Positions 12,941-62,507 of a stretch of DNA of 64,000 nt are shown here, piece by piece. The notes beneath the pieces are model-generated. The model did no database searches and was not told the origin of the DNA. It saw only the letters and a list, made by a program, of their open reading frames with translations. The stretch covers positions 66,526,001-66,590,000 of the forward strand of contig OZ076415.1 in NCBI GenBank assembly GCA_964187785.1. The letters are read 5' to 3'. The stretch's first letter is position 1. Every line of letters begins with the position of its first letter. This stretch comes from Amphiscolops sp. MND2022. Lineage: Eukaryota. The position numbers and the translations under genes were made by a program.

Positions 12941-13309
12941 CGGTTGCGTGAGGAGGCATCCACTGATGATGGGTGGTGTGGTATTGAGGAGCGATGGAAA
13001 GGGAAGGATGAAATGAGTTGATGGTGTAATGAAGGATAGCTGCGCAAGGACGAAGCAACAGGACAAAACTGAAAAGAAAGTTGCATATGAACATAAAAAG
13101 TGGGGTAGGGCGAGACTGAAAAGATACGGGACGAGTACAGATGAATAAAAACAAGAAAGGACAATTCATAGAAGTAAAAAGTTAGTAAAATTATTCTCGA
13201 TGGTTAAAAGGGGTAGAAAGTCGTTTATTTGAAGGAAATAATAGGTGACATGGAAACGAAGAGAAGAAAGGTGGGCCTCTGGCGGATGCGATGGAGACGT
13301 AAACACGAT

Positions 13310-16874: not shown

Positions 16875-17062
16875 GATTTCTGCTTGTTTTTGACACTCGG
16901 TGGGGAGTTCATTTAGTGTTTAGTCGGCGGTATCTATGCGCGCCGGAGGCGCTCTAGTTTTTATACTCATGATACAATTTGGTCTTTGATTGTCTTCGAG
17001 GATTGGATCTGAGGATACCAAGGAATTTCTCCGGGTGGCTCTTCTTGGGTGTTGTCTTTCCG

Positions 17063-42034: not shown

Positions 42035-42035
42035 G

Positions 42036-44225
42036 TGTAAAGGTTCGTGTGGGTTTAGGAAAATTAGTTTTCTGCGATTCTTAGTCAGTTGAGCTTAGGA
42101 GTTAGCTTGCGACTATGCCTTCCTAAACCTTTACAAAAGTTGTCTCTAGGTCTTCCGAGTTCGCAGGAAGGACTTTGTTTCGAGAGAAGAGTTTAATTTT
42201 ATAAAAAGAATTTGAATTAGGTTGAGTATTATATTCAACAATGTTCGTTTTTACACAATACGCAAGAATATAATACAAACAGAATAATATAAGCATCCAA
42301 ATTGACACAAGTATCCAATCAATAATATCTGGATTGTTTAACATTCACCAAAATAAATACGTTAATGTATTAATATAGCAATATTCAGGTAAGTTGTTAG
42401 AGTACTGTAAAAGCTGGAACTTTGGAGTCCTATAACGTCCAACAATTTGTTAGGACGAAGAGTATTGGATTTTTTGATCTGTTCAGACCTTTTTCATGTC
42501 TTAGTATTCTCAACAAGAATGTGAGATTAGTTAAGTCTGTTGACAAAGGTATGACAGGTTTGTCAAAGGCTCTAGCTTATAAGAAGCTGAAGAGTTTAAA
42601 TTGTGAAGTTTTAACTTATATAACCAGCAATAGCTAGGTCGAAGACAAGATTGTATAACGTCAAGACTTTGAAGAAGTCTTGTAACTCTGGGTAAAGCAA
42701 AATCTTATTAACCAGCGTTTAGCTAGGTTTTGTGTTTGGACAGGCTTGCCAATGGCTGCTTGAACATAAGGTTCAGTGCAGTGTTTTAAGAGTTTAGCCT
42801 ATTGCAATGGACTAGCAGGTTTGCTAAGTCGAAAAAGAGACAAGGTTGTCTAACGTCAAGACTTTGAAGAAGTCTTGTAAGTCTAAGTGAGGTAAGGGTC
42901 TTATTAACCAGCGTTTAGCTAGGTTTTGTGTTTGGACAGGCTTGCCAATGGCTGCTTGAACATAAGGTTCAGTGCAGTGTTTTAAGAGTTTAACTTATGT
43001 TGTGACTAGCAGTGGCTAAGTCAAAAGGAGACAAGATTGTCTAACGTCAAGTCTTTGAAGAAGTCTTGCGAGTCTAATTTAAGTAAAGGTCTTATTCAAC
43101 CGCGTATAGCTAAGTTGTTTTTTTGTACAGAATTGTCAGGGAACTCGAACTTAAGGTCCGACTAAAGTAAATTGAAAGATTATATGCATTTTAGGTTTTA
43201 ATTTTAATTTAAGTTAAGATAAAAATTAACTTTAACTAGCATTTGCTAAGTCTTGACGCGATAGCGTACTTTAGAGAAAAAATAAGTCTCAATCAAGAAT
43301 CTGGTTTATTTGGAGCGTTTAGCTCAAAATATAAATCCCTATGATTGCATAGGAGAACCTTGTTGGTTAACTTTTTGTTCAGTCGAATGACTGTAAATTT
43401 GTTGTCACGAAGACAAGAATAAAGCAAAAAGGAAGAAATTTTGATTGTGAATTTTGTTGTTAATTTCTTAGTTAAAGAAAATAACTTACCTGAAAAGCGA
43501 AGTGAGTGGAGGTTTGGAGATTTGTTTGTTTTTTGAGAGGAGGAGAGTGACGGATTTGATTTTGTTTGAGAGGTGAAAGACTATGAGAAGCGTATGATCG
43601 TCTTTAGAAATGTTGGCCCTTTTATACAAATCAAAAGGCACGTGCAACCAATCGCATTGATCGGTGCATTTTATTGGATACGAATAAATAACGTCACATT
43701 CTCGGTCCTTGTTCGGGATTAACCTCGGGACCAGGCATGGCCGAGTACAAGTCGGCAAGAATTGCATCAGCTAGTCATTTAACTCGGCTAGCCGAGTTGG
43801 CTGATGCAATTTTTGTTTATGTCAGGGGAAATAGACTCTTAAGTGGGGACTTTTGGTCTCGCTTGAATAATCTTTTGTTCTCAAATTGAGAAGCTCCGGC
43901 CGCACAAGTGGCGCCTATTGTTCTCTTCTCAGAGATATTTGCTCGCACAAGTGGCGTCGCATATTGTCTTTTTCAAAAGAATAAAAGAGAATTATTTGCA
44001 CAAGTGGCAAGCGTCTTTTTTGTAAAGGGGAATTTGTTCTTTCAAGTGACGCGCAGTTGTGAATTTGTTCACTTCTAAAATTCTTTCAAGCGTGCCTTGA
44101 AAATTGAAAGAATGCGAAAAATGAGTTACGGAAAATGAATAATTTTATTCTAGCTCCGATGAAAGATTCTTAGATAAATGTTTTAGGAATATTAAACTGA
44201 AGAAAAAGATGTGTTGAACACAACA
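42036..44225 (-). repeat. 3' LTR of element C (2190 bp, with ~2.5 internal ~193-bp tandem units at ~42640-43130)
   Basis: Direct repeat of 59269-61463, roughly 25-30 differences by eye (~99%). Confidence 0.97.
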
Positions 44226-44248
44226 ACTCACCCGGGGTTTTATAATGA

Positions 44249-45001
44249 TTAAGTTGAAAGGGGGGGATACAGGGTGTTTATGACTTTTACTTCGAAGAAT
44301 ATGGAATCGTTTTTCAGCCAAGGGTTTTCGGAATTCATTAGTTCATCAAGAGGGATGAAACACAAGATGGTGACGGCTGTGTTGCTAGATGTAGGTATGA
44401 GTTTCTTGAAGCACTCACTGTTGTTGTTGTTTGTCACAATCAGCTGCTTGTAAGGCTTGGATATGTTTCCCTGGCCGAGCAGGTGGATCTCAATGACGCC
44501 TTGAAAAGGCCAAATGAGGATCTCGTCATAGGGCCCGGGACACATAGCCAAGCACACTGACATGTATTTTCCTTTAGCAGTGTGGATCCCAAAGGGGTAG
44601 GCTCGAAGATGGAAAGTGTAGCCAAAGGGTTGCGAGAAGAAAATAGGGCTGCAAAGATCTTTTAGGCTGTTAGGATCACAATAGGGTGCTCTTACATGAG
44701 ACAAACTCTTTTCGTATTTATCCGCATTTTTTAGAATATCGGTAAACTGATCGAGTCTCCAAATGACTCTGTATAAGTTCCAATCCCGGGGAATTGACTT
44801 TTTTTCTATACGTAGAATACGCATTTCCAGTGCATCAAGTCTTTTGTTTACCTCGTGTGTGCGGTCCGAATCTTTTGATTCATCGGTGTAAGGGGTGATG
44901 TTTACTTTTTGTCGCAGTAGAAGTAACTCGTTAATTAGGGAGTCTGTCAGGGATCGTTCGTCTTCTAGTTGTTCAATGATGGTGGATAAGCTTGAATTCA
45001 T
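44249..45001 (-). CDS. TRAF-like protein (coiled coil + MATH/TRAF-C domain, no RING or zinc fingers), 250 aa
   Basis: VIWRLDQF, SPIFFSQPFGYTFHLRAYPFG, YMSVCLAMCPGPYDEILIWPFQG, CFIPLDEL, WLKNDSIFFEVKV match the TRAF-C strand motifs; intact, intronless. Confidence 0.92.
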   Translation of the reverse strand: MNSSLSTIIEQLEDERSLTDSLINELLLLRQKVNITPYTDESKDSDRTHEVNKRLDALEMRILRIEKKSIPRDWNLYRVIWRLDQFTDILKNADKYEKSLSHVRAPYCDPNSLKDLCSPIFFSQPFGYTFHLRAYPFGIHTAKGKYMSVCLAMCPGPYDEILIWPFQGVIEIHLLGQGNISKPYKQLIVTNNNNSECFKKLIPTSSNTAVTILCFIPLDELMNSENPWLKNDSIFFEVKVINTLYPPLST

Positions 45002-47711
45002 CTTGAGTTATAGTTCTGAAAGAGAATACAAAATCACTTTTAAAAAATGCTGAAGTGCCTCTAAGGGGCACTACTATTCGTTGATAGCCTAGAATGGGAT
45101 TTTCTAGTGTAAATTCTTGGCGGTTTGGATCCCAGAAGACAATATGCCACTGGTTACATTCTCGTTTCAAAAGATAATTTAAATCGAGTTGAAATCGGGG
45201 ATTTCTGGTGAAGGAATATCTGTTGGCAGCCTCTTCAATCTTTCGTTGTCGGCGTAGTGATTCTTGAACACCAAAAGTAGTCTTTTGCTTTTTATGAGAT
45301 TGTTTGATGGGTGATGGATGAGGTCGCTTGGACGGTAAGGGAGTTGTTTTCAGGCTGTTTGGTGGAGGAGGCGGTGCTGTTTTGACAGTGCCTTCAGCTA
45401 TTGTCTCAGTTGGGAGGAAGTCAAAATCTGATGGAGAAAGCAGAGGAAGATCGATCAAGTCGGCGTTGTCGGGTTTTGGTTCACTGGTTAGCGACTCTAT
45501 TTCTTCTGCAATTGATTTTTCGTTTTGCATGTTCTGGGTACTAAACACAAAAACATGAAAGTACAGTTTTACTGGTGAGACCGTATGGATGGTTGATGTG
45601 GGGGGTCTTGTTATGGCAGGATAAATATGCTCAAGAGTCTCGTGCTCATTGTAGTTTTTGTCGGGTGGAGTACTTGAGGTCATTGGGTCATGTTGGGGAA
45701 TCTGATTTAGCGTTGATATCATTGATACTGTAAACAAATTGTAGGTTGCTGAGAGGAGTATTTTACCGATACCCCAAGAAGCTCCTGTTACTCGGTGTAG
45801 TTCAAATGAGCGAAATGTTATGACGATTACATTAACCAAAAACTTGATAAGAAGAAATCCTCCAAACCATTGTCCCAGTTTGCTAAACCAGTATTCAATG
45901 ATACCAAAGGTGCTAATGAACTGCTCTTTGAAGTATCCTGGCGATATCATGTTGTCCACGTAGAAGTCTGTACGTGGTGCATAATAACCAAACTCGTCGG
46001 GGCCTTTGTTGGAGGCTGAAGGTATGATGAGTTCCCGTGAAAATTTTTGTAAAGCTTTTCTGGATGCTGCGCTAATCAAAATATTGTCCCAAAAATCACT
46101 GAGCTGTCCTTTTGTATACATTCCAGCATCCTGAGATTCATCGAAAGTATCCTTGGTAAAGGGAGAAATTTCTTTTGGGCCAAAGATGGCAGGTCTGTCT
46201 CGATGTGTGGGTTCTGGGTTTAACGAAAACCAGGAGTCCTTGTCTTGCATGTCCAGTTGATAAAGATTTTTGATTCTGTCCGTGCAGTTTTGAGTATTTG
46301 CATTAGGATAAGTTTGTCGGGTGATGGGATCTACGAATTGGATTTGTCCTTTGTAAAAGATGGGTGTTTTGTCATAACAATTACTAATAACATGAAGGGG
46401 TGATGATATTAAAGGACAGGAGTAGAGCCAAGCAAGACTGCCATCAGTTTCAAGGAACATAGATCTGTTTCCAGTTAGCATATATCCTGCAAGGCGTGGA
46501 TTTTCCAAAGAGAGCATCAATATAGTGAGTACTTGGGTCCTTTCTTGCTCACATTGGTTTTTCAACATTTGAATCTCAGACGATTGAAGCGCTCGAGTGC
46601 TTTCGAAAAATAGGTAGTCCAATTTTGTACCAACTTGCATTTCGTAGTCCATATGGAGCCAAGTATTTACATACTTGTCTTTAACTGTGGCGTCTCTGTT
46701 GTATATGTAAAGTCCAGGTTTCCCAGAGTTGTCTGTGGAGTATTGGAGGGTATAGAATCCTCTTGTAATTCCCATTTTTCTTCCAGAGGCCATGTCAAAT
46801 CCACCAGTATGTATTACAATGTACATGGACTCGTAATTGGTTGGGTAAACATCATTCGGTTTATTACAGAATTTCTGGGGGTAGTTTTTCACTTCGAACA
46901 AGAATTTGGAAGTGGAGGCGTTAGTACTCACCATGTGATATCGATGTTCATTTTTAATCATGTTCACTTGTTCTTCCTTCAAAACCGACAATACGCAATT
47001 ATCTGGGTGATCCCATATATAAGCATAAGGATCTAAGGATGTGCTTTGGCAACCCAAATCATCGAGTTTACATGGAAGGGGATTCCCATTTACATTATGT
47101 ACTGTTCCGTCTCTCAGTTTAACTGGTAGAGTCACCTCTTGGATGTGGCTTTCAAAAGTGTCTTTGGTCATCCAAGACCTTCCATTGCAATGGTTCCTAT
47201 TTTCCTCGCTTTTCTTCCCATTAGTATAGGATTGAACAAGTTTTGTCGCTTTTTTGAACTGGACCATGTGGTCGAGTATTTGTATTTTTCCTTCTTCCCG
47301 TGCCCTTCTGCATTGTTCTTTGCTCAGGTCGATATCGCTTGTGATTGTGTTTTGTTCGGCGTCAATACTTGCATGGTCATGATATCCATAGTGCCACTTG
47401 AATCTACTGTGCTTTAGACGGCACATAGTGGCGTTGAGTTCTGTTCGGAAGTGCTTTGTGTAGACAGTGATTATAGCTGGGTTGATTTCAATGTTTTCTG
47501 GGGAAACGTGGCAGGGTCTCACTTGATTTAGTGCATACAATTTGTTTTCAGTCATCTCTCCACAATCATAATGTGACACACTGAGTCTCTGTGCAATGTC
47601 GTCCAGATTGGGGTTCGGAAGGCCATTGATGAGGGCGTAGCACGTAATGAGCATTACAAAGAACTTACTGCACATTTTGGATCTAATGGGGGGAATCTTA
47701 GGCATTGCCAA
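44973..47711 (-). CDS. env: Envelope glycoprotein, chuvirus-G/herpes-gB-like (class III), read through into a ~185-aa downstream segment
   Basis: Signal peptide after M47675; HYDC..LNQVRPC; QCEQER..ENPRLAGYMLTG..DGSLAWLYSC..CYDKTPI..VDPITR..C Cys pattern; TM segment WFGGFLLIKFLVNVIVITF. Confidence 0.85.
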   Translation of the reverse strand: MAMPKIPPIRSKMCSKFFVMLITCYALINGLPNPNLDDIAQRLSVSHYDCGEMTENKLYALNQVRPCHVSPENIEINPAIITVYTKHFRTELNATMCRLKHSRFKWHYGYHDHASIDAEQNTITSDIDLSKEQCRRAREEGKIQILDHMVQFKKATKLVQSYTNGKKSEENRNHCNGRSWMTKDTFESHIQEVTLPVKLRDGTVHNVNGNPLPCKLDDLGCQSTSLDPYAYIWDHPDNCVLSVLKEEQVNMIKNEHRYHMVSTNASTSKFLFEVKNYPQKFCNKPNDVYPTNYESMYIVIHTGGFDMASGRKMGITRGFYTLQYSTDNSGKPGLYIYNRDATVKDKYVNTWLHMDYEMQVGTKLDYLFFESTRALQSSEIQMLKNQCEQERTQVLTILMLSLENPRLAGYMLTGNRSMFLETDGSLAWLYSCPLISSPLHVISNCYDKTPIFYKGQIQFVDPITRQTYPNANTQNCTDRIKNLYQLDMQDKDSWFSLNPEPTHRDRPAIFGPKEISPFTKDTFDESQDAGMYTKGQLSDFWDNILISAASRKALQKFSRELIIPSASNKGPDEFGYYAPRTDFYVDNMISPGYFKEQFISTFGIIEYWFSKLGQWFGGFLLIKFLVNVIVITFRSFELHRVTGASWGIGKILLSATYNLFTVSMISTLNQIPQHDPMTSSTPPDKNYNEHETLEHIYPAITRPPTSTIHTVSPVKLYFHVFVFSTQNMQNEKSIAEEIESLTSEPKPDNADLIDLPLLSPSDFDFLPTETIAEGTVKTAPPPPPNSLKTTPLPSKRPHPSPIKQSHKKQKTTFGVQESLRRQRKIEEAANRYSFTRNPRFQLDLNYLLKRECNQWHIVFWDPNRQEFTLENPILGYQRIVVPLRGTSAFFKSDFVFSFRTITQDEFKLIHHH

Positions 47712-47759
47712 AACTTCTTTTTGTGAAGGGCAAAATGTTAAGAGTGGTTTACGAGAGGA

Positions 47760-48100
47760 GAATTAAACGGTAGCTTGCTAACCGAGAGTTGGTGGAGTCG
47801 AATTTGACAATCCAGTTGAAATCAAGGTTGATTTGACTGATGAAGACTGCTTTTCAGAATGACTGAAAGTGGACAAAATTTGTCTATTGTCTTCAACCAA
47901 ACCAAAATTTGGATATAAATTTGGTAGTTTGCTAACCAGAAGTCGAAGGAGTCTAACTGACTACCCGATGCGAATCAGAATTGATTCAGACGTGATGATG
48001 TTTTCAAGAACTGAAATGAGAAAAATGTTGTCTAATGACTTCAACTAAAGCGAAAGTGAATAAACGTTTGGTAGCTTGCTAACCAAAGGAGGGTGTAGTC
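47760..48100. repeat. Three imperfect ~150-bp direct repeats upstream of env
   Basis: Core ggtagyttgctaacc at ~47769, ~47924 and ~48069. Confidence 0.6.
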
Positions 48101-48310
48101 AAAGTGACCACTTCTGTAGTTTTGAGATTGGTGCACGAGTCTATAAATTGAGTTTCAGTATCTGGCTCGATTGATAGCCGTTTTATAAGCATTGAAAGTA
48201 CACTCTGTTATCAGAAGTGAAGTTATGGGCTTTGGATTTGAAAATGGGATAGTGAGGTGGGATTATAAGAATTTATTCAACACAAAATACAAGGTTCTAG
48301 TTTATGAAAT

Positions 48311-48978
48311 TTACAAATCATAAAATTTAATAAGATCCGTGTACAACTGGTTATATTTAGGAGAGGTGACGCATTCGATATCCATAACACTGGTTAATTC
48401 TCCCAGCACATCTAAATCAAATTTGGTGATGTGTCTTTCGGGTTTGTGTTCATACGAAATGAGGGAAGCGGCTAGTGATGCATATAGGAAAGTGTTCTTG
48501 TAGATTTGTCTCTGGTACTTTTTGTCGGGCAAGTCGTAACGCTCAAAATGGATGCAAATTTTGAATCCGTAGGTCCAAGTCCACCGAACATAGGTAATCA
48601 AAAACTTTTTGTTGTTTTCACTAACGAAAATTGTCCAGGGGCAATTGAAACTGCGTTCTTCGCATTTCTTCTCCCAAAGGGTGTCCCAGTAGATAGTAGG
48701 AAAATGATAGCTTTGTGTAATTCTCGATTTTGCTCTGTTGCGCGAGTCTTTTTTGAGAATAGACTGTGGGTTCATTAGAGTCAAACAAATCTGTAGGTAT
48801 GTCTCCCACAAATGTCATAAGATGTAGAAAATAGTTCCAGTAGACTGATTGTCGATCTACAAAAACAATGTCCCTTTTTGAAGTGATGTGGTGTTTTAGG
48901 TAGATATAAATTCTATCTTGGTCCAGCTCAGTTTTATAGATCCTGTAGAATGCGTTTTCAATTTTGATGTAAGTCATA
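48311..48978 (-). pseudogene. Element C accessory ORF (~220 aa, aromatic-rich, one frameshift), unknown
   Basis: Overlapping ORFs 48621-49013 and 48311-48811 join near 48710. Confidence 0.55.
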
Positions 48979-48996
48979 CGATGAACTGAAATAATC

Positions 48997-49482
48997 AAAA
49001 GTTTTTTACCCACGGCAGAGATTGATAACTGAGATCGTTACCGTGCTGAAAAGTTTTTTACCCACGGCAGAGATTGATACTGTGATCGTTACCGTGCTGA
49101 AAAGTTTTTTTACCCACGGCAGAGATTGATACTGTGATCGTTACCGTGCTGAAAAGTTTTTTACCCACGGCAGAGGTTGATACTGTGATCGTTACCGTGC
49201 TGAAAAGTTTTTTACCCACGGCAGAGATTGATACTGTGATCGTTACCGTGCTGAAAAGTTTTTTACCCACGGCAGAGATTGATACTGTGATCGTTACCGT
49301 GCTCGACTTTTTGAAAGGTTTTTTACCCACGGCAGAGATTGATACTGTGATCGTTACCGTGCTCGAATTTGAAAAGTTATTTACCCACGGCAGAGATCGA
49401 TAACTAAGATCGTTACCGTGCTTGATTTTTTGAAAGGTTATTTACCCACGGCAGAGATTGATAACTAAGATCGTTACCGTGC
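48997..49482. repeat. Tandem array, 9 copies of a 51-60 bp hairpin-forming unit
   Basis: Unit aaaagttttttacccacggcagagattgatactgtgatcgttaccgtgctg; CACGG/CCGTG and GAT/ATC inverted pairs. Confidence 0.95.
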
Positions 49483-49584
49483 TAAGCTGAAATGAATGAT
49501 TATATATGAGCTATTAGTTTAAGTTAAGATGACAGCGAAGAGAAGGGAAAAGGATTGGGTAAGAAGAAGACTTTTATGTACAAT

Positions 49585-50106
49585 TTAAAAGTCGTCCATT
49601 TCTTGCCAAAGCATCACGGTTTCTAATATGTCTATATACATATCTTTATAGTTCGAGCTCCGGCAGGTAGCATCCATTTGGTCTGTTATGGCGCTCAAGG
49701 CATCAGTATCCTGTTTAGACAGTTGCGGTTCTGGTTTCCTTTTGTAAGTGACTAGAGCTGCTGTCAGAGACATGTAGAGAAATGATCCCGGTTTTAACCA
49801 TTTATGGTACGCTTGCTTTGACCTGTAGTTGTGGAATCGAATTTCCACATCTGCTGCTGGATGCCAGCTCCAGTTAAACTCTTGTACAATCATGGAAGTC
49901 TCTTCGACTTCGGGCATCACATTCCATGTGCAATTGAAATTGATTTTATTGATAACGATGATTGGAATGTCATGAAAGACGGGCTTCATCTCTGGTTGAA
50001 TTTGGCTGAAAGTTGACTGAAAAGAAAGACAATGTTCGAAAATGCTCCTTGGCTTATTTTGTAAAATTTGAACAAGTTTTACGGTTGCAAGAGCTTGACT
50101 TTGCAA
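49585..50106 (-). CDS. Element C accessory ORF, 173 aa, unknown (start uncertain)
   Basis: Open frame with protein-like composition between pol and env. Confidence 0.5.
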   Translation of the reverse strand: MQSQALATVKLVQILQNKPRSIFEHCLSFQSTFSQIQPEMKPVFHDIPIIVINKINFNCTWNVMPEVEETSMIVQEFNWSWHPAADVEIRFHNYRSKQAYHKWLKPGSFLYMSLTAALVTYKRKPEPQLSKQDTDALSAITDQMDATCRSSNYKDMYIDILETVMLWQEMDDF

Positions 50107-50872
50107 AAGACAAAATTTTATACTTTTGTGTTTTTGTTCTTTTCACAAGGTTCTCCTTTAGCAGGGCTTTGTCTTATTTCTTTTGTTCTCCTACTACTTT
50201 TGTTTTCTTTTGTAGTCTTTGTAATGTGATTTTTGTGTTCTTTTGTTTTCTGCATGCTTTTGTTATTACATGCAGTGACTTCTTTTATTAATTTCTTCTA
50301 ATTGTTGACTCCTCTTTTCCGTTTTCTTTGGTTTGCATCATTGGCTTTCATCTGTTCTTTTTATTAAAAACGCGCTTTTGTTGTTGAAGAACTGTGGGTG
50401 CCATGTGTGTTTTTGAAGTTTGCTTTGTAGTGAATGCGCTTTTGTCATGGTTTAGTTCTTTTGGTTGCCATGTGGTTTCAAGTGGTTTGAAAAATTGTTT
50501 GTTCACAATGTGCTTTTGTAATGGTTCAGTTCTTTGGACGCCATGTGTGTTTTTGAAGTGGTAGCTTAAGTTTGACTTGTGTTGAGTGCGCTCTCGGATG
50601 TTAGTCTGATCTCTTCAAATTCACAAGTAAGTTCGTTTTCGGTTTTCGTTTTTCTTGAATTTTTGTTATCGTGTATATGACACGCTCGACCGCCGAAAAA
50701 GGAATAGAAAAGTTGTAAGCATATAGTGGTAAAAATTGGGAGAAAAATGAAAAACGGTGTTGAGCAGCAAAGTGTGAGAGGAGGAAATTTTTAAATGGTA
50801 TAAGGGGGGGTGGTGAAAATGAAATTTGAGATTGCAAGTTAGTTGTTGTTATTTAGACTTTTTCTTTGCACG

Positions 50873-51466
50873 ATGAACCGCTTGCCCTTTTCTACCGCAA
50901 ATGACGCGTATTTGGCGCCAGATCTTTTTGCTGACATGCGAGCGTTGGTAACTGACCTGGAGCTTCCGATGATGGCGGGAACAACACCGGAAAGTGAAGT
51001 TCTGCGGCGCCCAGAACCACTTCGGAGAGCAGTGAGGTTGGCGTTAGGAGAACACGTAAGTTATTGAGTAGGGTGGCTTCTAAGCACTATAGGGGAGGTT
51101 TTTTTTGTATTGTTTTTGTCACGGATATAAGAAGGGAACAAAGTTGTCGTTCTGAAAGTTGATTGTACGTGTTTCGTAATTGTGATTTCCAATCGTGATA
51201 GTTTGTTTTAGTGGAGAAAGAAGCTATCGCACGGAGCCAAAGATGTGTGGACTTTTAAACTTAAGGCGATAGTGCAAGGTTGGGAGAAGACTTCTCCACA
51301 AGACCGGGCCAATATAGCTCGACGGTTGGACAGGAGCCAATTCTTCGAGGTCCTCCAAGAGCTAGCCTTAGCAGGAGGGTACATGGTGTGTTTGTGCGCT
51401 GGACACCCTAAGCCACCTCCTAATGGGGCAACCGTTGTCCCCTTTGAAAGGGAAGACTTATTATAA
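50873..51466 (+). CDS. Two-exon antisense gene inside element C (145 aa, unknown)
   Basis: Exon 50873-51055 (ATG, 61 codons); donor GTAAGT; 156-nt intron ending tttgttttag; exon 51212-51466 in phase 0, open to the stop. Confidence 0.7.
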
Positions 51467-51658
51467 ACTTGTATAAATTGTAAATATTTTGTTTTTGTTA
51501 TTTTAATATTTTAATTTTATTTTGTAATACTTTTGTTTTAAATTTAAGTTTTTAAGTTGTAGGGTGAAAAGTAAGAGAACGGTTTTTGACGGTTAAAAAT
51601 TCGAAAAGTTTAGCTGGAGGAGAAGGATTAGCTAAAACTTTGAGCAATCGCCTCTGTG

Positions 51659-51855
51659 GAGGCTTGTTGATTAAAACATCAACAGTCACAGTGCTATCTA
51701 TTCCAGGCAGTTCGACCATTTAAGGCGAACCGCCATAGCACATTTTTTCTTTGTGGTTTTTGTCTCTTGGGAAGACTTGTTGAAGAAAACCGTCAACAGT
51801 CACAGTGGTATCTATTCCAGGCAGTTCAACCATTTAAGGTGAACCGCCATACCAC
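51659..51855 (-). ncRNA. Duplicated cis-acting RNA stem-loop (2 copies, 114-bp period) downstream of pol
   Basis: Stems GTGSTAT/ATASCAC and GGCGGTTCR/YGAACTGCC with two compensatory substitutions between the copies. Confidence 0.6.
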
Positions 51856-52255
51856 GAATTTTTCTCTAATACATGGAGAAGTGATCCAATTAAAGATTTT
51901 TGGTAAAAATCTCGTGCTTGAGTGAGGGGTTCCAAAAAGGTATACCAGTGAAGTGTAGGCTATTGCCAATTTTCTCGTAAAAAAATTGTGGTTGCTGTAT
52001 CCAATGGGTCACTAGGCAGCCACTTTGTTTGTGACTACGTAAGAAAAAAATTGAAGTTTTTTTTTGAAAAATGTTTCAGGAGTGTGTTCGGAGGCTTCCT
52101 GGTGAGTCTCATGACACGGTGAAGTGTGTGTAGTTCCGGATTGTCTAAGTATATAATTGTGAAGAAGAAAAGGTAAATCGGGATTTTGGCGGAACGGAAG
52201 TGTTAGAGATGTGAAAAGATTTTATTATTATTATTATTATTTTTTAATTGAAATT

Positions 52256-55200
52256 TTAATCTTTATAACCTTTTCTCTCAATGTCTCGGAGGGAACTACC
52301 AGGGGTGCTTCGTTCGTATTTAGGATTTTTGGGTTTTTCGGAAAACCGTGTAGTTACTTTTTTCTTGAAGTTAGATAACTTTCCTGTTTTTGGGGAAATT
52401 TGATCGGGGGGAGACATTGTATGGATAGGAGGTACGGACGGGAGAACCGGTGTTCTTTTAGGTAGGGGAGTATTGGAAGAGAAAGCGAGTGGCAATACTG
52501 CCAAGGGAAGGCGTGGTGTTTGCATCGGTGGAAGTGGATTTGTTCCACAGCTTTGATAGGAACGTTCCCTCGGAACGGTGTTGTTAGACGTAGATGGTAT
52601 TGGGGTGTGAAATTGTGGGGTTTTCGGAGAGAGGAATCCAGAATCGGTACTGGGGGAAAATTCAGAACTTTTTGTAATGTTGTTGTTCGGCCCAGAAAGG
52701 GGGGTTATGATGAGTGGCATAAAATCTAGTTTGTGCTCAGATTGTCCTGAATTGTGTTTGTCAATTTGACTCTGGATCAAGTGCTTGTAAAAGTTATCAT
52801 CTTGTTCTATGGGAGCGTAATTTGTTAGCAATGGGGGCAAGGTCTCCTCTTTGGGGAAATATTCTAGTAAGTGGTTTCGATGAGTGGTTTTTACGTTCTC
52901 GGGGTTTTCATCTTCTTTTATCTCGTATGTGGTGTTGGTTATTTGTCTTGTCACCGTGAAAGGTCCTACTCGTAATTGTTTCAATTTCTGTGATTTGAAT
53001 AGGTCGGGTTTATGATTCTCTAGGAGAACCTTTTGACCGACTTCGAGCGGTCGTCCCAGTTTGAAACGGTTCCGATACTCATGAGCCTTTGATGTGATTT
53101 CTCTACATCTTTTGTAGGTGGATGAGTAGATGGACTTGAATTCGTTTTCTCTTGTAAGTAGCTCGGAAGATAACTGTGGTTTAAGGAGTCGATCAAGGGA
53201 CTTGTTTCGGAGGTTATTTTCACTGTGGGTGTGAGGTTGTAAATCCGCACAAAACTCCGATTTGCATAGTTTGTTTTTGTCGCGAATAAGTCCGAGTTTC
53301 AGCGTCATGGGTATTTGTGGTTTAACGCCAAAAACAATTTCGTAAGGAGTCAAACCCCGTTGTGTAGTTTACGCTCGTATTATGGGCAAAGGCAAATTTA
53401 GATGCAAGTGTTGACCAATTGTTTCCTGACTCGTTGGTGAAGTTCCTCCAGTATCTCATGAGATGTTTGTTCTGGACTTCCACTTTGCCGTTCGTCCAAG
53501 GCGAGTATGCAGTGCGCGGTGCCAACGTTATCCCAAATTCTTTTGTCCAATTTCAAAATCACGGTTGATGAAAGCTGAGCCATTATCGTGGACGATTTTT
53601 TGAGGGATGCCGTAGGATGTAATCCATTTTTCTAGTGCATTGATTGTAGTCTGAGCTCCTGTATCTCGAACAGGATAGACTCCGAGAAATCTTGAAAATG
53701 CATCTACTACAACTAGACAATGTGTGTTCAAGTTACTGCTTGGTCTAATAGGTCCTTTGTGGTCGATATGAATTGTTTTGAAGGGGGTTGTTTCGAGTTC
53801 GCCCCACTGCTTAAGAGGCGCTTCTTGTAAGTCGTGTCGCTTAGACTTGTTAGTCTGGCATTGTAAACAATCCTCTATTAGAGATACTATCCATTTATAT
53901 CGTCCAGGCCAAAAAAAATTCTGTCTGATGTTTTCGAATGTTTTGAATATGCCTGGATGGCCGCTGTGAGTGTGAGCATGAGCTAGGTTGAAGAGGGGTA
54001 GGAATAAGGATAAGGGGACACAGATTTTCATCTCGTATTTGTCTGTTCCATGAACGGGTTCATTATAGCAGAGTAGATTGGTTTCTTTATCGAGAAAAAG
54101 TTGGTTAAAATTATTGAAATACGATAGTAAGGCCCTCGATTGTTGTATTTCGGGTGTTTTGGTGGTTGGCTTGTTTTGGTTTCTAACCCAGGATCGTACT
54201 ACTTGTAATACGGGGTCCTTAATTTGTTCTGCGACTAGAGTAGGGATATCCAGATCAGCGACCTTAGAATAATCACTCAGTTTTTGTAGGAGATCTTTAG
54301 TGTCAACGTGTGGGAACTGCTCCACGTCTGAACTTTTATTTAATAGTGGTCTTCCAACCTTTTGTAGAATGTTCTTTTCCTTTGCCGTTGATTTATCACG
54401 GTAGAACTCGTGATCTCCGCTGGAAAGGTGGAGTTCGGCGACATCTTCTTCGTCATCACTAGAGTCTGTTTCAATTTCGTCTATTCTACTATATTCGGGT
54501 TCGCACTGCATTTTGTATGGGGGAAGACAGAGGTTTTTGTATTGGTTGATTGACTTCCCCAATTTAAAACAATCGGCGATGTCTTGTCGAGTCGTCATTA
54601 CTGTTTGTTGGTTCTCGTAGTGTTCTACTTCATGTTCCTCTCCATCGTACTTGAGATGGAGTAGTCTTTGATCTTTGCCCGTTTGACAAAGGATAGGAAA
54701 AAAGTCATTGGTTCCACACTGACCGTCGTCATTGTGCTCGATTGTATAATGTATTTTCGATCCGAATTCGTCAAAGAAACTGATATCTCGCGGTATTTCT
54801 TTGTGGAGTTTCTGCAAATTTTTCCTTTCCTCCAATGTGACGTTCCGACTGAGTATATCTGGAAACGCGAGATTAGATCCTTTAGTCCAGATGATTTTGA
54901 GGTTTTGGAACTTGGTAATTATTACCTGGTATTTGAAAAAGCGGTGTGAGAGTTGTCCTTTCCGCCCCCAAAGGTATAGGATGGGTTTGTGATCGCAATA
55001 GAGGTATATTGGGAATGGAGATCCAATAATGTAGTGTTCGTATGTTTGAAGTGCTGATACTATACCACACAATTCACGGTGAAGGGTGGACATTTTTTGT
55101 TCAGCCTTGTCAAATACGCGCGAATTGAAAGAAACTATCCTTTTGCCTTCTGGAAACTGTTGCACTAAAATACAACCGGTACCAACATTCGAAGAATCGA

Positions 55201-56536
55201 CATGTATGTGGAAGGGGTACTCAGTTGAAGGGACAGCAAGAATAGTGTCTTCACATATACGGCTTTTTATATCAGTGAAGAGGTCTTCGTGTTCTTTTGT
55301 CCATTTGAAAGGTGTTGTAGATTTGATCAAGTCGTAGAAGGGTTGACTGTCCACATGTAAGTTCTTTATATAGCAACTATAAAACCCAAGACAGCCAAGT
55401 ACTTTCATCACATCCCTTTTACTTTCGGGTGATTTTAGGTTTTTGAGATCTTGTACTCGTTTTGCTAAGGGCTGTATTCCTTGTTCAGAAATAACATGAC
55501 CCAGGAATTTGACTTTTCTAATGAAGAAGTTTGTCTTCTCAGGTGCAGCTTTAAGTCCGGCTTTTCTCAGGAGTTGATGGTACTCGTGAATTATTGTGAA
55601 CATTTCTTGTTTTGTTTGAGCCTGCATTAGGCTGTCATCAAGGTAGGTGATAGCTTGTTTTCGTTTAATAAGGGGCTCAAAGTGTATAGCCATTAAACGA
55701 CTAAAAAAGTTTGGAAGTCCACAGAGTCCGTAAAAACCACGTATATACGTATACTGTTTTCCGCCGGTGATGAAACTAGTGAGCTTTTGGGTCTCGTCGC
55801 TCAATGGTACTTGGTGATATGCGCAAGATAAATCGCTGACTGTGAAGTACTTTCCATTGATTCGAGTCATGATCATCTGTATGGGTTCCAATGGCCACGA
55901 GTAATTTGTTAAATCTGTTATAGAATTCAAGTAGCGGGCATCGATTACTAGTTTTACGTAGTCTGCTTTGGGCATTAGAATGATCGGATTGACAAAAAGG
56001 GAACCTAATTCGTCATCGTCTCCCATTTCTCTAATGATATCAGCTTCTTGGAGTTGTCCAAGTAGCTTCTCAAGTTTGTCTTTCAAGTGAAGGGGTACTT
56101 TGCTCGGTCGTTGTTTTTTGAGTTCCGAATTTGCTTTGAGGGTTACATGAAATTTTTGACGTACTTTTCCCACGTCGAATTTGTGTTGTGAATACACGTC
56201 TGCTGCGTCAATAAGCATATCTATTAGGACAACCAATTCTTCATCTTGGAGGTCAGTATATCGGAAATCGAATTTTTTCACATATTCCTTGGTTTCTTCA
56301 CGCTGATATTGGAGGTAGTTTTCTATCAAAGCGTCGTTATCTTCTTTTGTTCTAAGTTCAACAAATTGTTCTGTACAGGGTGGCTGACAAGATTTAGCGT
56401 CCTTAGCAAAATCTGTTTCAAGTTCTTCAGTGCCATTAGCAAATTTTTCCATATAATAGTCAATATCTCCCTCTTCTACTTCTTCTTTTCGTATGGAAGC
56501 ATTAACAAATTGAAGGTTTGCTTCTTTTTGTGACAC
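52256..56536 (-). CDS. pol: Element C pol: RT, RNase H, integrase (frameshifts at ~53530 and ~53350), long Pro/Ser tail
   Basis: VKLVIDARYLN, TYLDD, HVDSSNVG..FPDILSR, HAHTHSGH..CLQC, IDHKG..HDNG..GKVEVQN, VGPFTV. Confidence 0.96.
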
Positions 56537-57720
56537 AATCTCAACTTTAATATGTCCATAATCGAACGTGTTACGAATGATGTCTAACGCTTCTTTCCAG
56601 CTGATGTTGTCTAAGCCATCTTCATTTTTGGCTACTGAAATTGCAGATATATTGTTTAGTTGTGCGTGTCCGAACAGATTTTCAATGCAACTACGAAAAT
56701 CTTCGGGTCTAATTTTTTCGTAACACCTTTTTTTGCAACTAGCCCATAGATGAAGCGATTGGCTTCGTTATCCCAAAAGGGTAGAGCCGATCCAACGAAG
56801 GGTTTTGATTGGTTTACGAAATTTTGGAAATCTTTTTTCTGTTCACATAACTTTTTCGCAAATGTGGTTGTCATTTTTCCGTCTGCCGAGACACAAAAAG
56901 CTAAGTTTGCATTTGATGTCCGCAGAGTCTCGCCAGAGCCGTGGCTTAGAAAGACTTGTTGATCTCCTTCGTGCTCGAAGGGAACTGTTGAGTGTAGTAA
57001 GAAACAATCATTGTATTCTGGGTTTTCCTTCAATATTGTGTTGACCATCGTGACACAATCTTTTACCTGGAACTTCGGTCGTTCCCTTTCCTGTAGATCT
57101 ATGGTAGAATGACCAATTATCCCTCTATTAAGGGTTATTTGGTGATTTCGATTATTTTCAATCAAGATTGGCAGATGGGGTTCGGATTTCGTACATAAAA
57201 CATTCACAAAGGTAAGCCCTGTTTTGACTGCATTTTTGTGGGGTGTGAATGATGTTCCGGGTGCAAAATGTCTATTGTTCTCGCGAGAGTATTTATGTAG
57301 ACGGGTGGTTTTGGCATCGATACAAATTGGGTTGTCTGTTCGTACTGTTTCGACTTTTGAAACGTAAGGGAAAGGTTTGGTAGCACAAAGGTTACCGTTG
57401 CAAATTGTGTTAGGACTATCTTTCAATTCGATTGCGGGCAAATCAAAATGTAATTTAGAAACAAGTTGACGGCAGAAATCTATTCCCAGTAAATTGGGTG
57501 TCTTCGCTTCTGTTATCCAAAACTTTAGTTCTACGGGATGGAATCCATCCGAGTCGAAGCTAAATGTGATTGTTGTTGATCCGAGCATCGGTATAATTTC
57601 ACCAGTATAGGTTTTAGTCAGTTGCTTGCTTCTAACTACCGTGATGGGTTGTCCAAATTGTGCAATTTCCTCAAAAGCTCTATAATTGATAATCGAGCAG
57701 GCTGCTCCAGTGTCTAACAT
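56535..57720 (-). CDS. pol: Element C protease + dUTPase-like spacer + TARG1/OARD1-like macrodomain (56535-56960, 1-nt frameshift in the T7 run at ~56728-56734)
   Basis: MLDTGA; LPILIENNRNHQITLNRG spacer; LAFCVSADGKM..KPFVGSAL..FIYGLVAKK|RCYEKI..ISAISVAKNEDGLDNISW..IKVEIV. Confidence 0.85.
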
Positions 57721-57831
57721 AAATGCTATTTCTAACCCACTATCTTTTTTGGAGTCTCCGGTGGGAAAAAAAGAAGAGATTTAGGTGAAATCGTGATTTG
57801 AGGTTACTTTCTTAGTCAGGTCGCGGAGACT

Positions 57832-59226
57832 TTAACAGTTTAAAGGGTTGAATGAGATTGTACTGACTCTGTCCTGTCCTTCTTCGTCAACGAACTGTAC
57901 GGAGTTTGGGAAACTGTTATTGTTGGTTGGGAAATTCCTATTGTACTCGGAATTTGTGTTTTGTGGTCGGGCACTGAAGTTATACGGGCTATTTGGCCTA
58001 TTTCCAGTATAGGGAGTATTGTTTCGCAAATTAGTATTAGTAGGAGTCGGCCTACTACCTGAAGAGTGATTGTTGTTGCTATTGAAATTGTTGAAGTTGT
58101 TCGGCTGTTGAGGGTTATTTCGGTTCCAGTTATCATTTCGGTTGTTTCCCTCGTTAGGTCTGCCTCTATTGAAGTTTTGGTTAGACTGTTGGTTATTCCT
58201 CTGATTATTAGTGAAGTTCGGTCTTGATGAGGGCTGATAATTTTGTTGTGACCCAAATCCGGGTCCCTTCCGTTTGTTGTAATCGTTAGTGAAGGTGACC
58301 TTCTTCTCTTCATTAGCTCTTGATTGTGCTCTCTTGGCTTCGTCATCATAGATCTTTTTGCGGCAATATTGGAGTGTATGACCATTTCTTAGACAATATT
58401 TACAAAATCGTGTGATATTTTGGCGGGACGTATTATTTACGTCTACTGCAGAAATGTGGTAGTCGTGACAGTGGGAGGGTGAGCACCCGTAAGATAAAGG
58501 ATTAGCTACAGCTAAAGAACTGAATTGTTGTTCTTTTAGCATATTCTTCATTGCATTTATGTCTTCTCGTAGTTCAATTATCAATGTTTTTTGATTTTGT
58601 GAGGAATTCGGGGCTAACTGCGAGCTGATAGTAAAAACAAGGTCTTTATTAGTTACGTGTTCCTGAAATTGTTCCCAAGTAGCGTTGGGGTGTTCAATTA
58701 AGTATTGGTGAGCCTTGTTCTTGAGTTCGTTTGGCGTTAGTCCTCTGACTGCGAATTCAATATACTTTTGTCTTCTTTGGGCATTCAGTGCAGCTCTGGC
58801 TGCGTTGTCCGCATTTTCTTCATCTGGCCATCCTCTATCGACAGCTCGTTTCACCCGGTAAATGTAGTTCTTTATTATTTCTTCATTTCCTCTGACACTG
58901 TTTTCTGCAGTTATTCTATATCTGTATTTATCTCTATTGTCGGAAAAACGGGTTAGAAAATGTGTTCTGATGTGCTGCCAATCGTGTCCGTCTTCTATGT
59001 TATCTGTGTACCATTCGGCGGCAGGTCCTCTTAGGAGAGATGAAAAAAGTGCCTTTTTTCGGAACAAGTATCTTGCTCGTTCGTCATCATTGTCGGGTTC
59101 ATGGCCCATCGAGAAATTGATTTTATTCTCAACAGTTGTGAGAAATGATCTAACATCTTGTTCAGGATCGTTTCCTGAGAATTTGTCCAACGCGAGGTCT
59201 GGAAATGAGACTGTATTATCCGCCAA
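57832..59226 (-). CDS. gag: Element C gag (TTG start in this copy), CCHC knuckle, N/Q-rich tail, T TTA AAC slippery site
   Basis: LDKFSGNDPEQDVRSFL, LRGPAAEWY, CKYCLRNGHTLQYC. Confidence 0.92.
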   Translation of the reverse strand: MADNTVSFPDLALDKFSGNDPEQDVRSFLTTVENKINFSMGHEPDNDDERARYLFRKKALFSSLLRGPAAEWYTDNIEDGHDWQHIRTHFLTRFSDNRDKYRYRITAENSVRGNEEIIKNYIYRVKRAVDRGWPDEENADNAARAALNAQRRQKYIEFAVRGLTPNELKNKAHQYLIEHPNATWEQFQEHVTNKDLVFTISSQLAPNSSQNQKTLIIELREDINAMKNMLKEQQFSSLAVANPLSYGCSPSHCHDYHISAVDVNNTSRQNITRFCKYCLRNGHTLQYCRKKIYDDEAKRAQSRANEEKKVTFTNDYNKRKGPGFGSQQNYQPSSRPNFTNNQRNNQQSNQNFNRGRPNEGNNRNDNWNRNNPQQPNNFNNFNSNNNHSSGSRPTPTNTNLRNNTPYTGNRPNSPYNFSARPQNTNSEYNRNFPTNNNSFPNSVQFVDEEGQDRVSTISFNPLNC

Positions 59227-59248
59227 TCTTCTCTTTTCCTTGTATGTG

Positions 59249-59265
59249 CCTCACTGGTCGCACCA
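59249..59265 (-). promoter_or_regulatory. Primer-binding site of element C (TGGTGCGACCAGTGAGG)
   Basis: TGG start 3 nt after the 5' LTR; cognate tRNA not identified. Confidence 0.75.
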
Positions 59266-59268
59266 GTT

Positions 59269-61463
59269 TGTAAAGGTTCGTGTGGGTTTAGGAAAATTAG
59301 TTTTCTGCGATTCTTAGTCAGTTGCGCTTAGGAGTTAGCTTGCGACTATGCCTTCCTAAACCTTTACAAAAGTTGTCTCTAGGTCTTCCGAGTTCGCAGG
59401 AAGGACTTTGTTTCGAGAGAAGAGTTTAATTTTATAAAAAGAATTTGAATTAGGTTGAGTATTATATTCAACAATGTTCGTTTTTACACAATACGCAAGA
59501 ATATAATACAAACAGAAGAATATAAGCATCCAAATTGACACAAATATCCAATCAATAATATCTGGATTGTTTAACATTCACCAAAATAAATACGTTAATG
59601 TATTAATATAGCAATATTCAGGTAAGTTGTTAGAGTACTGTAAAAGCTGGAACTTTGGAGTCCTATAACGTCCAACAATTTGTTAGGACGAAGAGTATTG
59701 GATTTTTTGGTCTGTTCAGACCTTTTTCATGTCTTAGTATTCTCAACAAGAATGTGAGATTAGTTAAGTCTGTTGACAAAGGTATGACAGGTTTGTCAAA
59801 GGTTCTAGCTTATAAGAAGCTGAAGAGTTTAAATTGTGAAGTTTTACCTTATATAACCAGCAATAGCTAGGTCGAAGACAAGATTGTCTAACGTCAAGAC
59901 TTTGAAGAAGTCTTGTAAGTCTGGGTAAAGCAAAATCTTATTAACCAGCGTTTAGCTAGGTTTTGTGTTTGGACAGGCTTGCCAATGGCTGCTTGAACGT
60001 AAGGTTCAGTGCAGTGTTTTAAGAGTTTAGCCTATTGCAATGGACTAGCAGGTTTGCTAAGTCGAAAAAGAGACAAGGTTGTCTAACGTCAAGACTTTGA
60101 AGAAGTCTTGTAAGTCTAAGTGAGGTAAGGGTCTTATTAACCAGCGTTTAGCTAGGTTTTGTGTTTGGACAGGCTTGCCAATGGCTGCTTGAACATAATG
60201 TTCAGTGCAGTGTTTTAAGAGTTTAACTTATGTTGTGACTAGCAGTGGCTAAGTCAAAAGGAGACAAGATTGTCTAACGTCAAGACTTTGAAGAAGTCTT
60301 GCGAGTCTAATTTAAGTAAAGGTCTTATTCAACCGCGTATAGCTAAGTTGTTTTTTTTGTACAGAATTGTCAGGGAACTCGAACTTAAGGTCCGACTAAA
60401 GTAAATTAAGAGATTATATGCATTTTAGGTTTTAATTTTAATTTAAGTTAAGATAAAAATTAACTTTAACTAGCATTTGCTAAGTCTTGACGCGATAGCG
60501 TACTTTAGAGAAAAAATAAGTCTCAATCGAGAATCTGGTTTATTTGGAGCGTTTAGCTCAAAATATAAATCCCTATGATTGCATAGGAGAACCTTGTTGG
60601 TTAACTTTTTGTTCAGTCGAATGACTGTAAATTTGTTGTCACGGAGACAAGAATAAAGCAAAAAGGAAGAAAGAAATTTTGATTGTGAATTTTGTTGTTA
60701 ATTTCTTAGTTAAAGAAAATAACTTACCTGAAAAGCGAAGTGAGTGGAGGTTTGGAGATTTGTTTGTTTTTTGAGAGGAGGAGAGTGACGGATTTGATTT
60801 TGTTTGAGAGGTGAAAGACTATGAGAAGCGTATGATCGTCTTTAGAAATGTTGGCCCTTTTATACAAATCAAAAGGCACGTGCAACCAATCGCATTGATC
60901 GGTGCATTTTATTGGATACGAATAAATAACGTCACATTCTCGGTGCTTGTTCGGGATTAACCTCGGGACCAGGCATGGCCGAGTACAAGTCGGCAAGAAT
61001 TGCATCAGCTAGTCATTTAACTCGGCTAGCCGAGTTGGCTGATGCAATTTTTGTTTATGTCAGGGGAATTAGACTCTTAAGTGGGGACTTTTGGTCTCGC
61101 TTGAATAATCTTTTGTTCTCAAATTGAGAAGCTCCGGCCGCACAAGTGGCGCCTATTGTTCTCTTCTCAGAGATATTTGCTCGCACAAGTGGCGTCGCAT
61201 ATTGTCTTTTTCAAAAGAATAAAAGAGAATTATTTGCACAAGTGGCAAGCGTCTTTTTTGTAAAGGGGAATTTGTTCTTTCAAGTGACGCGCAGTTGTGA
61301 ATTTGTTCACTTCTAAAATTCTTTCAAGCGTGCCTTGAAAATTGAAAGAATGCGAAAAATGATTTACGGAAAATGAATAATTTTATTCTAGCTCCGATGA
61401 AATAATCTTAAAGAAATGTTTTAGGAATATTAAACTGAAGAAAAAGATGTGTTGAACACAACA
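59269..61463 (-). repeat. 5' LTR of element C (2195 bp)
   Basis: Direct repeat of 42036-44225. Confidence 0.97.
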
Positions 61464-61465
61464 CA

Positions 61466-62507
61466 TGTCAGAACGGGTCACGTTCGAGTTGTTAATGGTG
61501 TTAAGTCCGTTACATTCACTAGTAGATGATGCGATCTTCTCGGTTAAGGCCATCACAATGCTCGTTAGGTCGCTAATTTGCCTATTCATTTCCATGAAAC
61601 GTTGGTCGACTGAACTCGAGTTAGGATTTTGTCTACTGTTGATAATATCTCCACTATCAAACTCATTCATCTGGTTTCTCGACAAGACTTCCGGAAAGCT
61701 GTTCTCACTTTCGTTATCACTGTTCTGTTCCATTCTACTGGAACTTGCCGCATAACTGTCTACGTGCTGTGATCTCGTATTAACCATGCTCGGTTCTTTA
61801 ATAAGACTTTTGAGTTTTTGAGTTCATTGTTTAAATTGAAGGAGAAGAATTACAAGTTTGTATGTTAACGATGTAAGCAACACTACCTTAGCTGAAGGTA
61901 AATTGTACTGAAGGTATTTCAACACTTGTTACTTTCTGCACAATGCTGGTCACGCGTCTATGTCACGTGACTGTTTTGACCAATGATATTGCTCTATTGA
62001 TTAGGTGTTTATTGGTGCGTCCTGCTGGTCGCAACGCAAATGGTCTTTTGTACGAAATATAGCACCAATATGTTGCTATGGTTACGTGAGTCATCTATCA
62101 TCTTGTTAAACCGATACAACTTTAAAATGATGGCGACCTATCATCATTGCACGTAATTCTTCAGGTTACTGGTAAAACTAAATATGGTGGAAGCACTTGT
62201 ACACTGAGTATAAATATGATGAATGCACTTGTACGTAGAGTATAATGATTAAATGATGCTAACTTTTGTACGTTAACTACACGTTGGGAAAAGAATTGAT
62301 GATGATGGGATAAGCCCGTCATTGTTCAGTAGTAATTCATGGTTATTGAAATATCAGACATATTGCATTTAACTGAGTTGTTTAATGTTTAGAATGTTTT
62401 TTATCAGTTTCATTGTTGTATTCTTTCTGTATCGACCACTGTCTAAACTTGACGTAGTGGTATTGACAACGTTGTCTCTCGATTTAGTTCATGCTTCCGG
62501 CATGACA
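61466..62507 (-). repeat. 5' LTR of element B, containing the gag start codon (61787)
   Basis: Direct repeat of 27882-28923; MVNTRSQ...NVTRSD joins MVTGV at 42034 once element C is removed. Confidence 0.96.

Follow-up and report, generated by a model that had tools for sequence, protein, structure and literature searches.

A TARG1-class macrodomain inside the Pol polyprotein of a Ty3/Gypsy retrotransposon family, with canonical motifs in sister Pols and an altered pocket in one lineage

The retrotransposon and its broken pol gene

The window, a stretch of 64,000 nucleotides from Amphiscolops sp. MND2022, contains a full-length LTR element of approximately 19.4 kb on the minus strand (42036-61463), and the macrodomain described here lies inside it. 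Its LTRs are 98.7% identical over approximately 2200 nt, differing by 23 substitutions and two internal indels. The LTRs are direct repeats that end in TG...CA, the element has a target duplication and a primer binding site (PBS), and its genes follow the Ty3/Gypsy order of gag, protease (PR), reverse transcriptase (RT), RNase H and integrase. The Pfam match of the protease ORF to Asp_protease_2 (E 8.5e-4) is below the cut-off. An errantivirus-like trait is also present, in that an ORF for a fusion glycoprotein (PF24664, E 6e-35) sits between pol and the 3' LTR.

Table 1. Features of the 19.4-kb element and of its macrodomain (window coordinates; residue numbers are those of human TARG1)
Feature	Position	Strand	Remarks
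5' LTR	59269..61463	-	TG...CA ends; then PBS-like TGG start at 59265
3' LTR	42036..44225	-	98.7% identity to 5' LTR
Target duplication CATG, 4 bp	42032-42035 and 61464-61467		flanks the 19.4-kb element
gag	57832..59250	-	ORF and Pfam scan
Protease ORF: aspartyl protease (DTG motif), spacer of about 155 aa, macrodomain N-part	56656..57780	-	
ORF: macrodomain C-part, acidic linker, RT, RNase H, integrase zinc finger, core start	53528..56767	-	
Integrase C-terminal part and SH3-like domain	52256..53368	-	
env-like ORF, Monjiviricetes-type fusion glycoprotein	44973..47762	-	PF24664, E 6e-35
Accessory ORF, TRAF/meprin MATH domain	44249..45007	-	PF21355, E 1e-20
TARG1/OARD1-class macrodomain, split by frame change	56533..56964	-	pocket degenerate
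A7 run on coding strand, reading frame changes here	56728..56734	-	
Lys84-equivalent codon	56731..56733	-	upstream frame, inside A run
Asp125-equivalent codon	56609..56611	-	downstream frame
Two more frame changes in integrase core	53351..53571	-	near 53553-53571 and 53351-53371

Several other features of the window were observed. The TRAF/MATH ORF has been captured downstream of the env-like ORF, within the LTRs (together 44249-47762, minus strand), and is possibly a second immune-signalling accessory gene; the env-like and TRAF genes would fit an animal host. Between pol and env lie two ORFs on the minus strand, one of 167 aa (48311-48814) and one of 185 aa (49585-50142); they are alike by eye, have no significant match in Pfam or NCBIfam, and are separated by an array of 51-60-nt tandem repeats (approximately 48967-49483). 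In each LTR a unit of 191-196 nt is repeated in tandem about three times (42610-43157 and 59856-60416). The element itself sits exactly at the 5' LTR/PBS junction of another Gypsy element, and the CATG duplication spans this junction. This target element has LTR-like repeats at 27882-28923 and 61466-62507 that are 98.5% identical, and its pol occupies 36553-40041. An assembly gap of 200 N is located at 3796-3995.

A sequence-only reading of this DNA had placed a TARG1/OARD1-type macrodomain between the protease/spacer and RT, broken by the loss of a nucleotide in a homopolymer. The content of the flanking ORFs bears out this place: the N-terminal part of the domain closes ORF 56656-57780, and the C-terminal part begins ORF 53528-56767. 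The domain does extend over about 56533-56964 on the minus strand. Both the quoted motifs and the run of seven T (56728-56734) are found in the sequence, and the frame does change within that run. Compared with P0003, an intact Pol described below, pol of the window copy has three frame changes, namely the one at the A7 run and two in the integrase core. In addition, every frame meets a stop between the end of gag and the protease motif. As assembled, the window copy cannot make a complete Pol; it is a decayed insertion, a broken member of a worn lineage. With two other frame changes in the integrase, it makes little difference to pol whether the one at the A7 run is an error or a mutation.

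A run of seven A residues is a slippery-type sequence and this one adjoins the catalytic Lys codon, which would suit a designed recoding site that sets the level of a macrodomain-RT fusion. However, P0003 and the five sister Pols introduced below all read through the macrodomain in one frame, and the window copy has other breaks; we regard such a site as hardly credible. A separate insertion of the macrodomain into the window copy alone is ruled out by the same flanks in the sister Pols.

Identity of the domain

The intact Pol (P0003, 1821 aa, from ENA) represents a cluster of 168 members at 90% identity. It was the sole match among 21 candidates, is 94% identical over the query, and carries both parts of the macrodomain in one frame, so that the domain can be studied without frame correction. 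In a single-sequence phmmer search against the PDB, the 153-residue domain of P0003 matched human C6orf130/TARG1 with E-values of 3.5e-11 to 4.5e-11, and below E 1 the only matches were to TARG1 (5/6 among the matches listed). This match is the independent proof of the TARG1 class, and at E 3.5e-11 it rules out a chance resemblance. Both halves of the window domain were also recovered by a profile of 68 TARG1-like sequences, as the top two of 1208 six-frame segments (E 3.9e-37 and 3.8e-22, with the next-best segment at E 0.59); this profile is not independent, because the P0003 domain and element-borne relatives that retain some flanking sequence are among its members.

The structure of the P0003 domain, modelled with a TARG1-rich alignment of 68 sequences, is a macro fold predicted with a pLDDT of 92.7. 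TARG1 chains occupy ranks 1-8 in Foldseek and ranks 1-5 in VIA-align (Z 21.1-22.2), and the model superimposes on TARG1 with Z 22.2 and an rmsd of 1.6 over 143 residues at 24% identity. DarG (Z 19-20) comes next, ahead of Poa1p (16.3) and, at about 15, viral macrodomains. Because the alignment is TARG1-rich, this result supports the TARG1 class and does not independently prove it, and the model is silent on pocket geometry. Together, the PDB match and the fold match confirm that the domain is of the TARG1/OARD1 type. The structure prediction for the spacer between protease and macrodomain had a pLDDT of 37.2 and is unusable.

A Pfam search with both window halves gave no Macro match. Pfam is also blind to the intact macrodomains of P0003 and of the sister Pol P0154, and is therefore too insensitive for this macrodomain class. 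A PDB search with the N-terminal half alone gave nothing relevant, and Atlas placed one Macro-containing cluster among the top three for this half (0.92; Macro on 28% of members). Two other classes were considered and rejected. Bacterial DarG is ruled out since P0003 has no NCBIfam DarG match and P0154 scores 27.5 bits where the cut-off is 250; no member of the DarT family was found among the element ORFs scanned. The MacroD/viral Mac1 class is ruled out by the Z of 14.6-15.1 for viral and YmdB-type chains against 22.2 for TARG1.

Pocket residues, sister Pols and change in one lineage

According to excerpts of PMC6397177 and PMC9967889, TARG1 catalysis depends on K84 and D125, the GxG loop holds the pyrophosphate, and D20, H32, C33, S35 and T83 line the pocket. 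The same excerpts describe H32 and C33 as contributing through the main chain (PMC6397177), equate K80 of DarG with K84 of TARG1 (PMC9967889), and give TKx(30,35)Px[IL]GxGxD as the TARG1-class pattern (PMC6397177). We compared these positions, numbered as in human TARG1 and located by the first base of each codon, across a table of 147 homologues plus P0154 and P0155. The 147 are the best 150 of 400 at E 0.001 after removal of three that are possibly human, and a fragment of the window lineage (P0017) was kept apart.

The two catalytic residues are kept in the window copy and P0003; among the matches listed, the K84 equivalent is K in 141/147 homologues and the D125 equivalent is D in 139/143. 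Equivalents of S35, C33, G123, L124 and W129 are kept as well. In contrast to this, several positions around them are replaced in both sequences by residues that are rare or absent among the matches listed. His32 is Phe (56898; F in 1/131 homologues, H in 120/131), Gly41 and Ala42 are both Thr (56871 and 56868; each in 1/132-134), and Thr83 is Ala (56736; A in 3/146, T in 134/146). In the phosphate loop, Gly121 is Glu (56623; E in 1/144) and Cys122 is Asp (56620; D in 0/143). Gly43, present in 123/134 of the homologues listed, is Thr in the window (56865) and Lys in P0003. The window copy alone has P118 replaced by Ala (56632) and I120 by Asn (56626). Of the distal-ribose set the lineage keeps C33 and S35, and has Phe for H32 and Ala for T83. 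The equivalent of the adenine-binding Asp20 is Glu here and D, E or N in the sisters, at a site covered in only 39/149 proteins. The fragment P0017 has G at position 125, and E and D at 121-122 as in the window and P0003. The class pattern fails in P0003, while 98/149 listed homologues match it, including P0154 and P0155; it also fails in the window copy upon inspection of three positions.

Excerpts of PMC5928194 report that the TARG1 mutants G43E, I44E and G123E lose both ADP-ribose binding and catalysis. By comparison of the sequences, a bulky residue at position 43 together with two acids in the phosphate loop is predicted to abolish ADP-ribose binding, with the caveat that the Thr of the window copy is a smaller residue than the Glu tested in TARG1; G43T, G43K and G121E mutants were not found in the excerpts of the cited literature.

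We found five sister Pols (P0154-P0158), of which P0154 stands for 415 members. One search gave two new sequences of three matches among 2162 candidates, and another gave three sisters and one distant element (five matches among 100 candidates). This survey of related elements found the macrodomain before RT, at the same position and with its His-Cys, Gly43, Thr-Lys and GCGLD motifs intact, in all five. The RT of P0003 is ordinary and is 77-87% identical to those of the sisters. In a tree of 146 domains the macrodomains of the family form one clade of 24 (FastTree support 0.966), which is joined by a ten-tip sister group (joint clade support 0.93), and Gly43 is kept in 10 of 11 flank-sharing relatives. 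The branch of P0003 in this tree has a length of 0.92, as against 0.04-0.22 for the five sisters. Another family member, P0018, is also degenerate; it lies on a long branch of its own and has degenerated independently.

The excess of change in P0003 is confined to the macrodomain. With P0155 as the outgroup, 31 changes in the macrodomain are unique to P0003 and 6 to P0154 (p 4e-5); corresponding counts are 10 and 12 in the spacer, 8 and 13 in the linker, 4 and 8 in RT, and 4 and 3 in RNase H. The placement of P0003 relative to P0154 and P0155 in the RT tree is weakly supported (0.716) and the choice of outgroup is therefore weakened, although the counts in the spacer, linker, RT and RNase H were balanced all the same. 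The five sisters are invariant at 46 sites; P0003 has changed 20 of these and kept 26, whereas leave-one-out controls changed 0/26, 3/29, 2/28, 1/27 and 2/28. The window copy and P0003 in turn differ at 15/148 macrodomain sites versus 7/540 sites in RT, RNase H and integrase (p 2e-6). These rate counts do not separate relaxation from positive selection, and the lineage as a whole is represented by two full sequences and one fragment (the window copy, P0003 and P0017).

Since 20 of the 46 conserved sites have changed, any two given sites would both survive by chance approximately 1 time in 3 (0.57 squared), and for this reason the retained K and D are weak evidence of activity. The sequence-only reading had described the catalytic positions as apparently intact. 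This holds for the equivalents of K84 and D125; it does not hold for loop 1 and the GxG phosphate loop, which are altered, nor for the class pattern. That reading had also proposed a packaged domain that could strip ADP-ribose from element proteins or cDNA. By its motifs, such a hydrolase would fit the sister families P0154-P0158, but it is not supported for the window lineage, in which the pocket is altered. We consider it decidedly unlikely that the lineage domain is still an active hydrolase of this kind. The K84, D125, S35 and G123 equivalents, the confidently predicted fold of P0003, and an intact Pol that stands for 168 cluster members would speak for activity. However, the claim is unsupported for this lineage: the residues that stand in place of Gly43, Gly121, Cys122, His32 and Thr83 each occur in 0-3 of 131-146 listed homologues, the class pattern fails in P0003, human TARG1 with G43E neither binds nor catalyzes (excerpts of PMC5928194), and between the window and P0003 the domain varies as much as the unconstrained tether.

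The explanation that we favor overall, with moderate confidence, is that of an ancestrally active eraser that is probably still active in the sisters and has become a pseudo-enzyme in the window lineage. The family clade and the shared flanks show a single capture within the family. An ancestor of this Gypsy family would have taken a TARG1-class macrodomain in frame between the protease/spacer and RT. Packaging with Gag-Pol and release by the protease are general Ty3/Gypsy biology; the macrodomain would be carried into the particle in this manner and freed, alone or with a neighbor, by the element protease. In the sister families the domain would remove ADP-ribose from acidic residues or nucleic acid, an activity that their motifs make probable. 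Such an eraser might serve as a counter-defense for element proteins or cDNA, a role that we put forward tentatively, and with some doubt, by analogy with RNA-virus macrodomains. To our knowledge, neither Gypsy proteins nor Gypsy cDNA are known to be ADP-ribosylated in this host. The lineage of the window and P0003 has kept the fold, but substitutions in loop 1 would block the pocket and those in the phosphate loop make it acidic. They make a loss of activity likely, and the domain is most likely a pseudo-enzyme that stays because it is in frame inside Pol.

Alternatively, the lineage domain may have changed its job and become a binder of RNA (genome or primer tRNA) or of a host protein, or a decoy in an arms race with a host ADP-ribosyltransferase, in which case the burst of change would have been selected. 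The burst is limited to the macrodomain and core positions are kept (26/46), which speaks for this alternative. There are also precedents in excerpts of the literature: TARG1 G43E and G123E still bind RNA (PMC5928194), macrodomains 2 and 3 of SARS-CoV are inactive and yet bind nucleic acids, and activity has been lost repeatedly among the macrodomains of viruses and hosts (both PMC10221186). However, the domain is still changing fast (15/148 sites between the window and P0003), its net charge of 0 makes it no more basic than the five sister Pols (-2 to +5), and there is no positive sign of a new ligand. We consider a changed job to be unlikely.

TARG1-like domains in other polyproteins and known systems

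A Pfam survey covered 51 matches (mainly the long ones from the 147 listed homologues, plus P0003) and a set of 11 proteins. The TARG1-like domain follows the protease in P0070 and P0149, RNase H in P0049, P0055 and P0159, and parts of the integrase in P0085 and P0132. It is also present in the RT-bearing protein P0092, behind a Gag related to that of the 19.4-kb element in P0105, and behind an integrase tail related to that of the neighboring element in P0048. Canonical motifs are kept in most of the surveyed domains. Because several positions are occupied, Gypsy polyproteins have captured and moved this domain repeatedly; the tree of 146 short domains does not give a reliable count of independent captures.

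Individual proteins showed further arrangements. P0055 and P0159 have a tandem of a canonical and a second, degenerate macrodomain between RNase H and integrase. P0068 (3401 aa), the polyprotein of a picorna-like RNA virus (RdRP_1, RNA helicase), carries a TARG1-like domain at its N-terminus (residues 35-162); this domain groups near element-borne domains. In P0132 (1651 aa), residues 1174-1513 consist of a TARG1-like macrodomain followed directly by a Tpt1/KptA 2'-phosphotransferase domain (E 3e-6), so that this polyprotein is an ADP-ribose writer and eraser in one.

The window itself contains a second, decayed Gypsy element (approximately 9300-22200) with a strongly diverged candidate TARG1-like domain downstream of its integrase (13290-13742, minus strand). 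This domain has an in-frame stop at 13446-13448, has Arg at the Lys84 position, and lacks GxGxD. It scores 14.7 bits, a score reached by 0 of 500 shuffles (maximum 4.4). Atlas gave it no macro support, its top matches (0.85-0.87) being to unrelated peptidase domains, and tblastn of 154 proteins gave no match at 13290-13742 at E 1e-3.

The arrangement in P0132 bears on another reading, in which the domain in this family works on RNA ends or tRNA primers. There it would remove what Tpt1-type enzymes leave behind (ADP-ribose-1''-phosphate or ADP-ribose caps) rather than oppose host PARPs. Yeast Poa1p is a fold neighbor (Z 16.3), and an excerpt of PMC4977317, citing Basta 2009, mentions CNPase or macro ORFs in fish endogenous retroviruses. 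However, neither Tpt1 nor CNPase was found in the Pfam-scanned element ORFs or in the five sister Pols, and Tpt1 was found in 1 of 11 retroelement proteins scanned. TARG1 (Z 22.2) and DarG (20.0) are also much closer than Poa1p. This reading is improbable.

A broader reading would join several of these observations. ADP-ribosylation may be an unrecognized anti-retrotransposon defense in invertebrates, answered by TARG1-class erasers that Gypsy elements move in and out of Gag-Pol, placing them behind Gag, ahead of RT, behind RNase H or the integrase and once beside a Tpt1-type writer. The rapidly changed lineage domain would then be a selected decoy or RNA-binder from this arms race. We think this combination rather doubtful. 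Macrodomains are a known counter-defense of RNA viruses, TARG1 and DarG take ADP-ribose off DNA, and some entries in retrotransposon databases bear a macro (A1pp) domain annotation. A link between ADP-ribosylation and retrotransposon silencing is described, in excerpts of PMC4695847, for SIRT6, KAP1 and L1; our literature search found no equivalent link for Gypsy elements. This search, conducted mostly without subscription papers, found nothing on TARG1-class domains in Gypsy Pol. In bioRxiv 2021.11.30.470311, the 12 of 14 relevant places of the text that were covered do not mention macro-transposon fusions; a supplementary table of that work lists such fusions and may bear on this point. The domain here is of the TARG1 class and sits inside Gypsy Pol, with canonical motifs in five sister Pols and a worn pocket in the window lineage; captured macro domains in retroelements are already on record in an excerpt of PMC4977317. 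By their motifs, the domains of P0154 and P0003 would form a natural active/inactive pair that could be used to ask whether the host ADP-ribosylates retrotransposon proteins or cDNA. The interest thus lies at the level of the family, and the window copy is the poorer test object.

Several known systems resemble these elements in part. Envelope-carrying metazoan Ty3/Gypsy elements (PMC13524379), likened here by gene content, share gag, PR-RT-RH-IN and the fusion-glycoprotein ORF; a search of the main text of that paper for 'macro', 'ADP-ribos', 'OARD1' and 'TRAF' found none of these terms. Fish epsilon-like endogenous retroviruses are also retroelements with a captured macro domain (Basta 2009, as cited in an excerpt of PMC4977317). 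There, however, the recorded macro domains are additional ORFs, whereas here the domain is of the TARG1 class and inside a Gypsy Pol. The macrodomains of RNA viruses (alphavirus nsP3, coronavirus Mac1) are likewise polyprotein-borne ADP-ribose erasers, directed against host PARPs, whose activity has been lost repeatedly according to excerpts of PMC10221186. However, they belong to another macrodomain class (Z about 15, 8-9% identity) and to viruses without reverse transcription. The DarG antitoxin macrodomain (PDB 5m31, 5m3e) is of the same class as the element domain and has the same catalytic Lys position (Z 19-20), but its identity is 14-16%, and no DarT partner was seen by the element. Human TARG1/OARD1/C6orf130 (PDB 4j5q, 4j5r, 4j5s) is the best match in both sequence and fold and has the K84, D125, S35 and G123 equivalents in common with the element domain. 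In contrast to TARG1, the element domain is embedded in a retrotransposon Pol, and the lineage of the window and P0003 lacks G43, G121, C122, H32 and T83 and departs from TKx(30,35)Px[IL]GxGxD.
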